Of a stretch of DNA of 64,000 nt, positions 26,940-58,979 are shown in pieces. The notes below the pieces were generated by a model. It worked only from the letters and a program-made list of their open reading frames with translations. It was not told the DNA's origin and searched no databases. Source of the stretch: Alphaproteobacteria bacterium (GTDB lineage Bacteria > Pseudomonadota > Alphaproteobacteria > GM7ARS4 > G965262615); assembly GCA_965262615.1 (NCBI GenBank), contig OZ253545.1, forward strand, positions 512,001 to 576,000, read 5' to 3'. Each line of letters starts with the position of its first letter. The first letter of the stretch is position 1. Position numbers and translations under genes: made by a program.

Positions 26940-26983
26940 GACGGTGCAAAAGTTACCATAGTCTGATTTCTGCGCGAGCAGAG

Positions 26984-27096
26984 GTCGGGTTACCTGCTGA
27001 ATACAAGACCTAATGGCGAAATAGGGGAATAGGCAGGTGTCTCACGCTGCGTTGTGTGTTACACGCGGTGCGGCAGGGATCTTACGGTGGCCCGAC
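26984..27096 (+). ncRNA. C4-antisense-like structured RNA, copy A
   Basis: Closing stem GTCGGGTTACC/GGTGGCCCGAC; arm with TGAATACAAGAC...GGAATAG; shared with copies at 58659 and 58866. Confidence 0.7.
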
Positions 27097-27112
27097 GCTG
27101 TCATCACATAAC

Positions 27113-27217
27113 AAAATCATGTTCGGCGGACGCGCCATCGGCTGGCGCACCTCAGTCATTCAGCGATGGATTGATAGCCGTATACATACGGATGGTGAGA
27201 AGCAAAAATTATATTGA
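27113..27217 (+). pseudogene. AlpA-family regulator C-terminal remnant
   Basis: KIMFGGRAIGWRTSVIQRWIDSR matches the AlpA LGGRAVGW...V..WI.SR pattern; N-terminal half missing. Confidence 0.75.
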
Positions 27218-27246
27218 AAATGTCCCTACCTAAAGACAGAGTGTAG

Positions 27247-28698
27247 TCAGAGACCCTCTTCTGCAACAATGCGCTCTGCCAGTGAGAGAGCCTCATATTC
27301 ATTGTTGGAGTGATTGAAAATCATCGCCACAATTTTTCTTCCATTAGAATTAGGGTGCCTCCCCTCCATTTTAATGGGCACACTAAAGTTGTTGCTGACT
27401 AATTTTTTCAAATGACGAGTCTCTTCACACATAGGCAAGTGAGCTGAATTGATTTTTGCATGAAAGTCTTCTATCTGAGACTCCAATTTTTTTCTCAAGT
27501 CACCCTCAATCAAACCTTTTTCAATAAGGTTCATACAGCCAATAAAATAGGAAGCTCTCTTTTCAAAGTTACGCAACATATTGCGCTCTGAAGATTTGGA
27601 ACGACATAGACGCGCAATAGCCCTACCGTTAAGCTTAAGTCTGCTTACAAGCTCTCTATAAAAAGCGTTATTTTCGAAATTATCGCGGCTACCGTTTGGG
27701 ACAAGCCGTTCATCAATAATATGAATTTCACCAACACACCAGCTATTGAACCGTTCCTCAGGAAAAATGTCCAATAGAATTCTATTATCACCTACCTGTA
27801 TGTTTCCACAACGGATTCGCAATCCAGCAATGCTTTGATTATGCTGTAGTGAGCCAAAGTAATTATGATGAGCGATCCAACCCACCGCCGCTAATTGGTC
27901 GCCATGACCCGGAATTTTTATTGTTTCCAGTTCCGTAAAGGAATCTTTCAATTGAGAAGAAAGAGAAAACTTATTACGAAACGGACGACAAATTGGCTCT
28001 TCTGAGTCATTCAGGTAAATTGAAATTCCACTGACATCAACATGAGGAGATAAAAATTCATTTATATCACGATGAAATTTGAATTCAGAAGCAAAGGGCA
28101 CTGGCGCGATTTGCTCCAAAAATTTCTTGACTGCATCCTCATTGAGTAGAATGTCATTGCCGTGGCGGATGACATCATGCAAAGTAACTTGAAAGAAAGA
28201 TTCATCTGAAGGGTCGCAAGATTCTTGAGAAAAAGAAGTGGCTTTTTTTACAAGGCTTAAAGCATCAATGCTATCATCGCTTGACATAAGAAGCTTACTA
28301 AAATGGACAACATCCCAATCAAAATTGCTTATTTGACCCTCACCAGCCGCCTTTGTCTTGAAGGATAGACGCTTGCAATAACCAATTCCAGAAAGCCTCC
28401 CAATTCCCCAAAGCCCACGCGATGACACCATATATTTTTTTGAGCTGCATCCAAGCCCCGTCATACAGGAAAGGAAATTTGCATTGGTAATTCCGCTCCC
28501 ATTGTCCCTAATGCTTACCATGCGCTCTGATTGATCAATAAAAATATCTATGCGAGGCTCAAAACGGTTATTGTCCTTACGAGCATCATCAACGGAGTCA
28601 GCAGCGTTTTGGATATACTCTCTGTAAAGCAGGAGAGGATTGCCATACATAGCTGTTGTGACAAGGCGCAGGATATTTTTGCCGACACGAGCATTCAT
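27247..28698 (-). CDS. GHKL (Hsp90/MORC-like) ATPase
   Basis: REYIQNAADS, IRDNGSG, SSK, GLWGIGRLSG; second domain with VGEIH...PNGSRDNFE. Confidence 0.88.
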   Translation of the reverse strand: MNARVGKNILRLVTTAMYGNPLLLYREYIQNAADSVDDARKDNNRFEPRIDIFIDQSERMVSIRDNGSGITNANFLSCMTGLGCSSKKYMVSSRGLWGIGRLSGIGYCKRLSFKTKAAGEGQISNFDWDVVHFSKLLMSSDDSIDALSLVKKATSFSQESCDPSDESFFQVTLHDVIRHGNDILLNEDAVKKFLEQIAPVPFASEFKFHRDINEFLSPHVDVSGISIYLNDSEEPICRPFRNKFSLSSQLKDSFTELETIKIPGHGDQLAAVGWIAHHNYFGSLQHNQSIAGLRIRCGNIQVGDNRILLDIFPEERFNSWCVGEIHIIDERLVPNGSRDNFENNAFYRELVSRLKLNGRAIARLCRSKSSERNMLRNFEKRASYFIGCMNLIEKGLIEGDLRKKLESQIEDFHAKINSAHLPMCEETRHLKKLVSNNFSVPIKMEGRHPNSNGRKIVAMIFNHSNNEYEALSLAERIVAEEGL

Positions 28699-30272
28699 GA
28701 GTCATCGCTCTCTTCTGCAATGCCAGCATCTTCGACTCGCTCATCATCTGGCAATGACGGCAAGTCTTCGGCAACTTTAATCGCTTTCATTTTTTCCCAA
28801 ATATCCATCTCTTCTTGAGAACTTACCTTACGGTAGAAATGATGCAAGTCTCTAATTTTCTTATCAGCATGATTGAACAATCTTTCTTCACGCTCCTTAC
28901 TGTCTCTCGTATCAAGCGCGGATTTTAGATCGTCTTTTTGAGACGGTGATAATTTTGAAAAGTGAGTACAAAATTCATCATACTCTTCTCTGCCACCGTA
29001 TTGGGTGTACCATGCTCGATTAAAGGTATACACATGCGGCTGAAAAAGAAGGTCTTCAAAATCATCATAGCTATCACCAAAGGCTGTTTTGAAAAACGCA
29101 GGATTGCCACTCACAATGCCATGGGTTGCTTGCAGGATAATTTGCATGGAGCGTAGCCAGTAAATGTTCCATTTTTCCCCGACATAACGGCGGTGAGGCT
29201 GATTGGTGGGCTGATAGCGCATAGGAAAGGAAAAAATCCTGATTCCTAACTCTTCATTGAGAGCCACATTGAGGCGCATCCGAGCAAAAAGGTCTTGAGG
29301 GCTATCGTGGAAATTATAAAGCATATAATTTGAAAGCTCAGTAATGCCAGCATCAAAGGCATAGCGGACCGCTTGTTCATAGGGTTTGCGTAATCCTCCA
29401 TGATCAAAGGCAATGCGTAATGGCTTAATGCAAATGGTTGCCATTTCCTGTAGAAAATGAGGTGATTTGCAAAGAATACGGGCATCCACGCCTTGATTAA
29501 AGTCCACACGGCGTTGTAATGAGCGTCCATTTCTTTTTAGTTTTGCACCCGCTTGAAATCCAAGATCGCGTATTTCAGCTATAATTTCCTTATAGCGTGG
29601 GGCAGCTGTGACATTGTTGTCCATCAAAATGAGGTCTTTCTTCTCGCCGTAGAGCTCAGCTACGCCATCAATAATGCGGCTCAATGATTGCGTTTCGCGC
29701 AAATCCCCTTCTAGTTTCGGAACACCACAAAAAGAACATTTACGAGTACAGCCCCGAGAAGCATAGGTGAAATAAGCATCCGATACAGGATATTGATAGT
29801 CAATGTGGTCAAGAATGCTGTAATCAGGGACATGGTCTTCAATGGGCGTTCCTTCTGTGTCATCGGCATAAAGGTCATTGGAAAAATGATCCAGCTGCAA
29901 TGAGGTTGCCGGATCCTTATCCAAAAGACCTTGAATAAAGCGCACGCCACTCCAGCGTGGCTCATCGGTGAATCGCTCGCGCATGAGAGAGGCGGCAATG
30001 CCGCCGACAAAAACCTTGTCAGCATTGCCACCAACCGCCTTGAGAGCAAAGTCTATGGATGCCGCAATGCGTTTATACTCAAAAGAAAAAAGGGTCGTGA
30101 TATAAATGCGATCCCAATGTTTTTGCAACACGCTTTCATCCTCTCCCTTGATAAAGCACACATGGTCATTTTTGCCTCGCTCACCGTGATACTGAGCAAT
30201 TTTCATGAGCCCCAACGGCGGATACTTGTTTTTATAGCCGGGCTCAATCAGCAAGATGTTTTTACCAGACAT
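28695..30272 (-). CDS. Radical SAM protein with B12-binding-like N-terminus
   Basis: ILLIEP...YPPLGLMK, VGGIAAS, SRGCTRKCSFC (CxxxCxxC), MDNN, DFNQG.DAR; start placed at MSGKN (30272). Confidence 0.9.
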   Translation of the reverse strand: MSGKNILLIEPGYKNKYPPLGLMKIAQYHGERGKNDHVCFIKGEDESVLQKHWDRIYITTLFSFEYKRIAASIDFALKAVGGNADKVFVGGIAASLMRERFTDEPRWSGVRFIQGLLDKDPATSLQLDHFSNDLYADDTEGTPIEDHVPDYSILDHIDYQYPVSDAYFTYASRGCTRKCSFCGVPKLEGDLRETQSLSRIIDGVAELYGEKKDLILMDNNVTAAPRYKEIIAEIRDLGFQAGAKLKRNGRSLQRRVDFNQGVDARILCKSPHFLQEMATICIKPLRIAFDHGGLRKPYEQAVRYAFDAGITELSNYMLYNFHDSPQDLFARMRLNVALNEELGIRIFSFPMRYQPTNQPHRRYVGEKWNIYWLRSMQIILQATHGIVSGNPAFFKTAFGDSYDDFEDLLFQPHVYTFNRAWYTQYGGREEYDEFCTHFSKLSPSQKDDLKSALDTRDSKEREERLFNHADKKIRDLHHFYRKVSSQEEMDIWEKMKAIKVAEDLPSLPDDERVEDAGIAEESDDS

Positions 30273-30279
30273 AGCCTTA

Positions 30280-58340: not shown

Positions 58341-58573
58341 GCGCGCCATTGGAGCTTGATTTGCGCGCTGAGCGATGCCCTCTGACTTTTGTGCGGGTGC
58401 GCCTGTTGCTGGAATCCATGCCCCTCAATGCCGCCGCCACCCTGTTGCTGGCAACCGATGATGGCGACAGCATTCGCGAATCATTGGTGCGGGAAGGTCA
58501 CGCCATTGACATAGAGGAGAAAAAAGACGGGCATATCCGCCTTGTGTTTTGCAAAAAGGTGGATGAAGGGTGA
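58337..58573 (+). CDS. TusA/SirA-family sulfur carrier
   Basis: LDLR.E.CP.TFVR..L.LE; ATGA overlap with the upstream gene. Confidence 0.85.
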   Translation: MSAPLELDLRAERCPLTFVRVRLLLESMPLNAAATLLLATDDGDSIRESLVREGHAIDIEEKKDGHIRLVFCKKVDEG

Positions 58574-58658
58574 TGACACAAAATCTTGTTTTTTCTTGTT
58601 TTTGAGCGTATGGTGACGGTGCAAAAGTTGTCACAGTCTGATTTATGCGTAAGCATAA

Positions 58659-58760
58659 GTCGGGCTTCTTATTGAATACAAGACCCGACCCCGAATGCTT
58701 GCGTTCGGTGGGGGGAATAGATAGGAGTCAGCCACTGTGATGACTTTTGCAAAGCCCGAC
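58659..58760 (+). ncRNA. C4-antisense-like structured RNA, copy B
   Basis: Closing stem GTCGGGCTT/AAGCCCGAC; TGAATACAAGAC...GGAATAG arm; CTGTGA and TTTGC segments complementary to upstream and downstream TCACAG and GCAAA. Confidence 0.75.
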
Positions 58761-58802
58761 ATATGTTGGGTGTTTCGCAAAACTAAAGTCACAGGAGTTG
58801 TC

Positions 58803-58856
58803 ATGACACCTATCGCGTTTCAAAACACCACGCCATCACGACCCTCTCTTTCCTAA
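58803..58856 (+). pseudogene. 17-aa stub resembling a Bro-N/antirepressor N-terminus
   Basis: MTPIAFQNTTPSRPSLS* after AGGAG RBS, in the position of the regulated gene of c4-type modules. Confidence 0.45.
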
Positions 58857-58865
58857 AGTGAATGA

Positions 58866-58979
58866 GTCGGGTTGCCTGCTGAATACAAGACCTAATAGCG
58901 AAATAGGGAAATAGGCAGGTGTTTCATCGCCTCGTTGCGAACGCCACTCGGTGAGGTTGAAATCTGGCGGCGACCCGAC
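58866..58979 (+). ncRNA. C4-antisense-like structured RNA, copy C
   Basis: Closing stem GTCGGGTTGC/GCGACCCGAC; first arm nearly identical to copy A; different second hairpin. Confidence 0.7.

Follow-up and report, generated by a model that had tools for sequence, protein, structure and literature searches.

Temperate phages P1 and P7 carry C4 (RF01695, clan CL00128), a small antisense RNA encoded in the leader of the antirepressor operon. Its processing by RNase P and its repression in trans are proven (PMC5320573, accessible part), whereas for the RNAs described here both are predictions. In the phage P1 record, the order is promoter, a1, b1, c4 (77 nt), a2, b2, and icd/ant. The loop of the second hairpin contains the segment b' (UCACUAAC), whose partner is b2, located 11 nt before icd. 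The strand that connects this hairpin to the closing stem contains the segment a' (CUGUCAA), whose partner is a2, located 4 nt past the RNA. The closing stem is followed by ACC. Here, three RNAs, designated A, B, and C, are described in a stretch of 64,000 nucleotides (positions 512,001 to 576,000 of contig OZ253545.1, hereafter called the window) from the genome of an alphaproteobacterium of the GM7ARS4 lineage (GCA_965262615.1). They are of the sRNA-Xcc1 type (RF02221), and RNAs of this type, including A, B, and C, are probably leader-encoded antisense immunity RNAs of mobile elements that work like C4 of P1 and P7. This reading is based on their fold, the link to the family, the cognate-specific complementarity with its covariation, and the association with particular genes.

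The CI RNA of P4, with seqA and seqC, is grouped with C4 among the closest known systems. Acinetobacter baumannii has Group 1 C4-like small RNAs (sRNAs), in which many copies of one scaffold within a single genome differ in their specificity loops; they have been proposed to act against phages or to control host genes (PMC5320573, as far as its accessible text goes). These RNAs belong to the C4 family proper and were shown to be expressed, whereas those in the window are of the sRNA-Xcc1 type and were recognized by sequence only. The CA RNA of N15 and IsrK of Salmonella are likewise small RNAs in the leaders of antirepressor or anti-immunity operons (PMC3632133, accessible part). Both belong to families different from sRNA-Xcc1. 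The N15 and P4 RNAs act by transcription termination, and IsrK acts by activation. In addition, C4-type and isrK-type immunity RNAs are located in the Bro zones of phage-inducible chromosomal islands, according to a report whose accessible text does not mention sRNA-Xcc1 (PMC10111431).

Rfam has listed sRNA-Xcc1 as a family since about 2012, with no mechanism assigned, and genome annotations carry it as a "virulence-linked sRNA". The accessible literature describes it as a trans-acting, virulence-linked sRNA that was first found in Xanthomonas campestris. A 2011 paper by Chen et al. reportedly terms it trans-acting in its title. According to the accessible parts of the sources, the RNA occurs in genomic islands, integron cassettes, and phages, at times as tandem arrays. 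Xylella has seven transcribed homologues with predicted targets, five of them in tandem in a genomic island (PMC12189769). The gene downstream of the RNA is symE in integron cassettes of Xanthomonas (bioRxiv 10.1101/2025.06.18.660453) and an ORF6N gene in APSE phages. A rule of box pairing or of antirepressor control for sRNA-Xcc1 was not found in the accessible parts of the literature searched; the paper by Chen et al. could still state one.

Three RNAs With a Common Scaffold

The initial annotation of the window had reported three RNAs with shared ends and a shared internal-loop motif, and both reading of the sequence and a motif scan bear this out (Table 1). All three open with GTCGGG, close with CCCGAC, and contain TGAATACAAGAC ... 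G(G/A)AATAG. The pattern of the internal-loop motif has four forward matches in the whole genome, and none were obtained in reverse orientation or with a reversed control pattern. In the common architecture, a closing stem P1 (GUCGGG.../...CCCGAC) of 9-11 bp is combined with a hairpin P2, in which the conserved internal loop (U)GAAUACAAGAC / G(G/A)AAUAG lies between the two strands, with a third arm, P3, and with a single strand, J3/1, that precedes the 3' strand of P1. When folded as single sequences, the + strands of A, B, and C scored modestly better than shuffles (z of -2.1 to -2.9).

Compensatory changes in the stems, which had also been claimed, can be read directly from the sequences. 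At position 7 of P1, A has U.G, C has U-A, and B has C-G; at position 9, the pairs are A-U, G-C, and U-A, respectively. A and C share the P2a CCUGC/GCAGG, in place of which B has UCUUAU/AUAGGA. The reported covariation of the leader hairpin holds in part: the hairpin reads UUCUGC-GCGA-GCAGAG before A and UUAUGC-GUAA-GCAUAA before B, with a GNRA loop in both and with one double change (C-G to A-U) and one single change (U.G to U-A) in the stem, but the seventh pair that had been counted would use the first base of P1.

B and C stand in tandem, as had been noted, with a spacing of 105 nt. The leaders of A and B (85 nt) are identical in 70 of 86 aligned columns, a separate comparison giving 85% identity over 104 nt, and the scaffolds of A and C are identical in 52 of 55 columns. 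The second arm had been said to differ completely in each copy. This applies only to B, whose arm is unrelated to the other two; those of A and C are identical in 30 of 48 columns and are diverged homologues.

A Family of 22 Copies in the Source Genome

The source genome is a single contig of 1,542,258 bases. Alignment of 42 members with MAFFT followed by RNAalifold recovered only three pairs. As the stems were misaligned, a covariance model, R1, was built instead from 10 well-aligned copies of the genome, B among them, with a hand-set structure. R1 finds 22 copies genome-wide, all with E<1e-5 and 12 of them outside the seed. Exactly three are in the window, B scoring 77.5, A 45.2, and C 41.7 bits (E 5.5e-18 to 1.5e-8), and nothing else is found in the 64 kb.

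In an Infernal alignment of the 22 copies, which is fitted to R1 and therefore favours the structure, 90.7% of the cells are standard pairs vs. 79.3% in shuffles, and 18 of the 24 pairs have changed on both sides; the observed values were reached by 0 of 500 shuffles. When the partners were slid by one to three columns, pairing was at most 46%. P1 pairs in 98.5% of the cells and P2a in 99.2%, and the covariation across the 22 copies supports the fold. G.U pairs are frequent, e.g., GU at the first P1 pair in 11 of the 22 copies, which indicates that the + strand is the folding strand and, hence, that the element is an RNA. In the strictly conserved internal loop, AATACAA, A, CC, GG, and A are invariant in 29 sequences.

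A search for orthologous loci in 30 other genomes, none of which is related to the source genome more closely than at the level of the order, gave only three matches of 24-28 nt. In a PurM scan for taxonomic placement, the only relatives had 36-45% identity. Contigs from four DNA-type runs of one study contained only strain or paralogue variants and a 207-nt skip from the leader of B to the body of C. Behind position 58686, contigs of the same study have a variant P2 tip (…CTGAGTGCTTGCGCTCATTAG…) on the same scaffold, indicating that the P2 tip also varies among strains or paralogues. A 20-nt string of the A/C type had no match in a metagenome scan. A search of metagenomes with a pattern of P1 plus motif was discarded: of its 42 loci, 31 lacked a P1 partner and the remainder were chance-like. 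Within the source genome, a unit of RNA, 16-codon open reading frame (ORF), and C-like RNA, resembling B-C, recurs at genome positions 1392571-1392359.

Relationship to sRNA-Xcc1

A, B, and C are divergent, sub-threshold members of the known sRNA-Xcc1 family. At the Rfam gathering thresholds, only three tRNAs are found in the window. At a relaxed threshold, the RF02221 model matches A with 22.5 bits and B with 30.9 bits (E 0.002), over its full length (model positions 1-87) and with the internal loop aligned, and in the whole genome it has 18 sub-threshold matches at E<=10, the best with 41.2 bits. The scores in 25 of 151 genomes of the class, the unpublished G043 included, run continuously from 70.3 to 32.1 bits, five of them over the cut-off, so that there is continuity with accepted sRNA-Xcc1 members. 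Of the viral members with the same motif, 17 of 20 pass the cut-off among the matches listed. The three-way junction of the family, with its 9-bp closing stem, asymmetric P2 loop AAUACAA.A / GAA(U), and short P3, is found here as well, and its consensus loop, AAUACAAuACCC ... GGGGAAU, aligns with A and B in the full-length match. The window copies differ from the consensus by a much longer P2 tip and P3 arm and by the missing CC tail.

Cognate Complementarity of the Variable Arm

In the source genome, a Shine-Dalgarno sequence (SD) and a start codon are found within 30-50 nt 3' of each copy. Directly 5' of that SD are two boxes with complementarity to the P3 loop and J3/1. At genome position 937451, for example, the loop UCCUUAGG faces CCUAAGGA, and at position 1464792, ACAAAGC and GUUUCAC face GUGAAAC-AGGA-GCUUUGU. 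A second box pair, also complementary to the P3 loop and J3/1, lies upstream of the RNA.

The specificity of this complementarity was assessed with a local-alignment score, using 20,000 permutations per flank and reverse-only controls. This score replaced a duplex-energy matrix, which was noisy, and the longest run, which gave a weak signal (6.00 vs. 5.27); a first permutation test on 26 loci had given p=5e-5. The genomic set was drawn from at least 120 motif-scan loci in genome contigs, 56 of which had a P1 partner among the matches listed, and from 30 further loci in the 151 genomes of the same class. Its 55 entries comprised 54 usable ones, and 49 remained after near-identical ones had been collapsed. 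Viral contigs of IMG/VR served as an independent replicate, with at least 103 loci; among the matches listed, 79 had P1, corresponding to 75 distinct RNAs, 57 of them non-redundant.

Among the matches listed, the 49 genomic members scored higher with their cognate flank than with non-cognate ones, both downstream (19.27 vs. 16.06; control p 0.67) and upstream (22.02 vs. 16.30; control p 0.50), and so did the 57 viral members (downstream, 20.05 vs. 15.55, control p 0.71; upstream, 19.00 vs. 15.43, control p 0.36). The cognate mean was reached by 0 of 20,000 permutations in each case. At least one cognate flank was in the top 5% of its row for 27 of the 49 genomic members listed, vs. ~5 expected, and the longest exact box ends 6-11 nt 5' of the start codon in 26 of 48 viral cases among the matches listed. 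Furthermore, loops and boxes change together between paralogues. The pairs are CCUGUG:CACAGG and CCUAGUC:GACUAGG in loci L153 and L177, and CUUUUGUUAG:CUAACAAAAG vs. CUUGUUUUAG:CUAAAACAGG in the three copies of L155, whilst CUCUGG, CUGUGUG, and CUACGUG in L031, L035, and L054 are matched by CCAGAG, CACACAG, and CACGUAG. Judged by this complementarity, the variable arm appears to carry antisense specificity, as the initial annotation had proposed.

The resemblance to C4 of P1 and P7 extends to the topology, the constant first hairpin, the order of the boxes, the second pair upstream, and the location in the leader of an antirepressor operon. In both types, the loop of the second hairpin pairs at the SD-linked box and the junction strand at the RNA-proximal box. 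The two variable segments, the two boxes, and the upstream pair are found in B and in the family at large, but not in A and C. Of 75 viral members among the matches listed, 66 have CC(C/A/T) behind P1, either directly or after one intervening base. C4 differs in that it lacks the AAUACAA/GRAAUA internal loop and in that its closing stem has 17 pairs instead of the 9-11 of the window copies. The two RNAs can share one leader: on the - strand of an IMG/VR contig (L306:357-778), an isrK/c4-a1b1 motif, C4, sRNA-Xcc1, and an ORF6N antirepressor-type gene follow each other in series, which places two different immunity-type RNAs before one gene. By eye, many viral loci (e.g., L306, L338, L348, and L356) have the RNA-proximal box in the loop of a small hairpin, CCC-UCUCAAAA-GGG, within the first 20 nt after P1. 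This hairpin begins with the CC tail, and the arrangement suggests a target displayed in a loop, like the c4-a1b1 motif.

In the mechanism proposed for the sRNA-Xcc1 type, the constant scaffold, i.e., P1 and P2 with the AAUACAA.A / G(R)AAUA loop, would present two variable single-stranded segments, the P3 loop and J3/1. J3/1 would pair with the RNA-proximal box of the same transcript and the P3 loop with the second box, which extends up to or into the SD of the next gene; the upstream box pair would be the counterpart of a1 and b1 of P1. Pairing would block translation of the downstream gene, in phages usually an antirepressor. The RNA itself would be transcribed, cut out, RNase P being the candidate enzyme as for C4, and act in trans.

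Downstream Genes

Of the 64 downstream ORFs with 60 codons or more in viral contigs, among the matches listed, 57 encode an antirepressor-type N-terminal domain. By Pfam family, these are P22_AR_N (15), Phage_pRha (12), Bro-N (9), KilA-N (9), AntA (7), and ORF6N (5), with no match for the remaining 7. ORF fragments from cellular genomes had matches in 9 of 22 cases among those listed, i.e., AntA (3), SymE (2), Rha (1), Bro-N (1, weak), and HTH_3 (2). The orientation of the RNA always agrees with that of the downstream gene. The initial annotation pointed to the right class of genes when it proposed antirepressor leaders as targets, but the boxes that were found flank the RNA itself and are not located in distant phages. 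The location in antirepressor-operon leaders is seen for the family through these viral ORFs; in the window, only stubs remain.

The proposal that the three RNAs form a small library does not fit the 22 copies in the genome either, at least eight of which precede intact lipoprotein, membrane, or nuclease genes. Besides lipoproteins, for which Pfam has no family, the products include a DUF6804 membrane protein and an SNase-like secreted nuclease (E 0.001, below the cut-off). The latter is part of a tandem array outside the window, at C1:1464243-1465385, where a ~275-bp unit of promoter-like leader, RNA, and the first codons of the nuclease gene (VKTQPWW...) is repeated three times, the full gene being present only in the last unit. 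Near-identical RNA-lipoprotein units are found in inverted orientation at C1:937451-938097 (+) and 960574-961229 (-), ~23 kb apart, and a third paralogous lipoprotein follows the copy at position 683325.

One Intact Module and Two Orphans

In the flank upstream of B, its J3/1 and P3 loop have exact complements of 9 and 7 nt, respectively, and the upstream cognate score of 39 ranks first of 49. Folded together with the initiation region, B has its minimum free energy (MFE) of -51.9 in an alternative hairpin over the boxes, vs. -48.6 for the three-way fold. By its sequence features, B is an intact module, with both box pairs kept and with a gene reduced to 17 codons.

No cognate boxes were found in the flanks of A, which ranks 24 of 49 downstream and 6 of 49 upstream (row p 0.51 and 0.14, respectively), or in those of C, which ranks 45 and 29 of 49. 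The SD and 5-codon ORF region after C has no complementarity to the arm of C, and this arm folds poorly, without a clean hairpin. In the absence of matching boxes, A and C are considered orphans, and both keep the three-way fold when folded with the initiation region. The leader of A contains B-type boxes that the arm of its C-type body does not match, and the body is followed by the 3' fragment of an alpA-like gene (E 0.0029 and 17.9 bits with PF05930, under the cut-off of 21), which lacks a start region of its own. A appears to be a chimera of a B-type leader joined to a C-type body, in line with the initial annotation as far as leader and body are concerned. The B-C tandem minus 207 nt equals the arrangement of A, and the contigs with that join mentioned above may represent copy A itself. 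Loss of the parent element, which had also been suggested, fits the 17-codon stub, the 5-codon stub, and the alpA fragment beside the copies. By contrast, complementarity of the arms to translation starts of the host was not found: the best complements examined genome-wide (13 nt for A, 14 nt for B, and 16 and 14 nt for C) are all inside long ORFs.

Table 1. Positions in the window of the RNA copies A, B, and C and of associated features.
Feature	Position	Strand	Details
Leader of copy A, B type	26907-26983	+	-10-like TATAGT 26934-26939; GNRA hairpin 26968-26983
Box in leader of A	26945-26953	+	TGCAAAAGT; matches J3/1 of B, not of A
Copy A	26984-27096	+	P1 11 bp; P2 internal loop TGAATACAAGAC at 26998-27009; P3 a long arm
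alpA-like 3' fragment	27113-27217	+	PF05930 profile positions 32-51 of 51
Leader of copy B	58583-58658	+	-10-like TATGGT 58609-58614; GNRA hairpin 58643-58658
Upstream boxes of B	58620-58628; 58631-58637	+	TGCAAAAGT; TCACAGT; inside hairpin 58613-58634
Copy B	58659-58760	+	P1 9 bp; P2 with long tip; P3 GUCA...UGAC; J3/1 = CUUUUGCA
Downstream target region of B	58765-58856	+	GTTGGGT 58765-58771 pairs with P1 3' strand
Downstream boxes of B	58777-58782; 58785-58794	+	GCAAAA; AAAGTCACAG; abut SD AGGAG 58793-58797
17-codon ORF after B	58803-58856	+	ATG at 58803; stop included
Copy C	58866-58979	+	P1 11 bp; P2 near-identical to A; diverged arm; without own leader
SD after C	58993-58997	+	GGAGG
5-codon ORF after C	59006-59023	+	stop included; probable stub

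Weighing the Explanations

Several observations weigh against an antisense immunity RNA of the C4 type. The gathering score of RF02221, 53 bits, is not reached by A, B, or C, and the model does not find C at E<=10. The C4 model has no match at E<=10 in either window region, with 68.8 bits for the P1 control, and the likeness to C4 is therefore one of architecture and not of shown homology. Only 4 of 18 copies of the source genome, and none of A, B, and C, have the CC tail behind P1. A scan for the sigma-70 consensus called no promoter before A or B, where only the -10-like TATAGT and TATGGT with a weak -35 are seen, and of the B-type promoter that had been ascribed to A, only the -10-like sequence stands. 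In the pairing test, 22 of the 49 genomic members listed gave no cognate signal with the score used, and these include most of the Xanthomonadaceae type, in which the family was defined. Long loops between boxes lower the score, which also fails to register some pairs that are visible by eye, and paralogues are not independent, even though near-identical ones were collapsed. The antisense model leaves the conserved P2 loop without a role and, finally, the same complementarity would also arise from refolding in cis.

The latter point leads to a rather unlikely alternative, i.e., a riboswitch-like switch acting in cis. The three-way junction would compete with a hairpin that hides the SD and is formed by the 3' half of the RNA and the downstream leader, and a ligand, a protein, or temperature would decide at the P2 loop, without processing or action in trans. 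Such a switch would provide a role for the strictly conserved internal loop. Moreover, when RNA and initiation region are folded together, the 3' half of the RNA is paired with the boxes at the MFE in 11 of 13 leaders of the source genome, 0.2 to 15 kcal/mol below the three-way fold, which the box-less A and C keep, and several copies of the source genome are followed downstream by a repeat of the P1 5' strand with which their P1 3' strand can pair. However, the upstream boxes are equally specific, and an expression platform does not need them. Also, an RNA with proven action in trans has the same layout, control by antisense RNA is classical for phage antirepressors, the genes regulated here, and stand-alone copies exist with terminator-like hairpins and no gene (L040 and L119). 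The gene context does not suggest a ligand, and searches of the window gave no match to known riboswitch families. Less probable still is the interpretation of the initial annotation, according to which the copies are a library of trans specificities against the antirepressor leaders of incoming phages or satellites that confers superinfection immunity after decay of the parent. The attachment of A, B, and C to gene stubs is consistent with it, and the conserved scaffold and less conserved arms of A and C are as expected with diversifying arms. The accessible part of PMC5320573 attributes the heteroimmunity of P1 and P7 to such loop differences and raises a similar idea for the A. baumannii C4-like sRNAs. 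Yet, no target was found in the genome, where the best complements are in coding sequence, the poor folding of the C arm suggests decay, and most of the 22 copies are located before intact non-phage genes and have cognate boxes of their own.

It is very improbable that the copies are conventional trans-acting sRNAs with unlinked host mRNAs as targets, for example in virulence, as proposed for sRNA-Xcc1 of Xanthomonas and the sXF RNAs of Xylella. The transcribed Xylella homologues have predicted targets, according to the accessible part of PMC12189769, but the specific complementarity is to the RNAs' own flanks, the class of downstream genes is strongly non-random, and no unlinked target at a translation start was found in the source genome. 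A DNA-level element, i.e., an attC-like recombination site or a single-strand origin, deserves hardly any credence. It would accommodate the occurrence of sRNA-Xcc1 in Xanthomonas integron cassettes (bioRxiv 10.1101/2025.06.18.660453, accessible part), the resemblance of A to a recombinant joined within P1, and the P1 stems of some copies, which read GTTGGGT...ACCCAAT. The frequent G.U pairs work on one strand only, however, the orientation always matches that of the downstream gene, and UUCG and GNRA loops are common. An attC site opens with the inverse core (RYYYAAC) and closes with the core (GTTRRRY), and its folded bottom strand is the substrate. The core-like order of the RNAs, with GTYGGG first and CCCRAC last, is the reverse, and they do not have the make-up of attC.

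Other Features Near the RNAs

On the - strand, positions 26827-26854 hold a perfect sigma-70 consensus promoter, TTGACA-16-TATAAT, which points leftward, away from copy A, and faces a 196-aa ORF at 26076-26666. A promoter-like site, TTGACT-18-TATCTT (59020-59049), lies between copy C and a 128-aa ORF (59101-59487), which may therefore be transcribed independently of B and C; the only match of this ORF is a weak one to a PHD_like antitoxin (E 0.017). Copy A lies in a defence-island-like stretch (23075-30395), which encodes a DUF3644 and EC042_2821 endonuclease-like protein, a probable DNA methyltransferase (SPPY motif, by eye), a bPH_2 membrane protein, and a HATPase_c_3 protein overlapping a radical-SAM protein. 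An AIPR protein, of the abortive-infection type, is encoded at 61977-63776, 3 kb downstream of B and C.

Implications

A wider reading is offered tentatively, as one that is possible but more doubtful than not. sRNA-Xcc1 may be an unrecognised, widespread class of phage and satellite immunity RNAs, structurally analogous to C4, which would determine how specific antirepressors are controlled in Proteobacteria and the phages of these bacteria. In the present small genome, the promoter-leader cassette may have been co-opted as a portable, self-targeting translational brake on ~10 envelope, lipoprotein, or nuclease genes, and orphans such as A and C may persist as decoys or as immunity determinants directed at incoming elements.

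If the box pairing is functional, temperate phages and satellites would have in sRNA-Xcc1 a third major type of RNA immunity device, next to C4/CI and IsrK/seqA. The RNA would control the antirepressors, which decide on prophage induction and on cross-talk between prophages, and box complementarity would provide a simple rule to predict heteroimmunity groups. Hundreds of annotated sRNA-Xcc1 loci would then have to be re-read as cis-linked regulators of the next gene and not as global sRNAs. For the source genome, this would explain a repeat family of 22 copies and mark the regulatory regions of decayed mobile elements.

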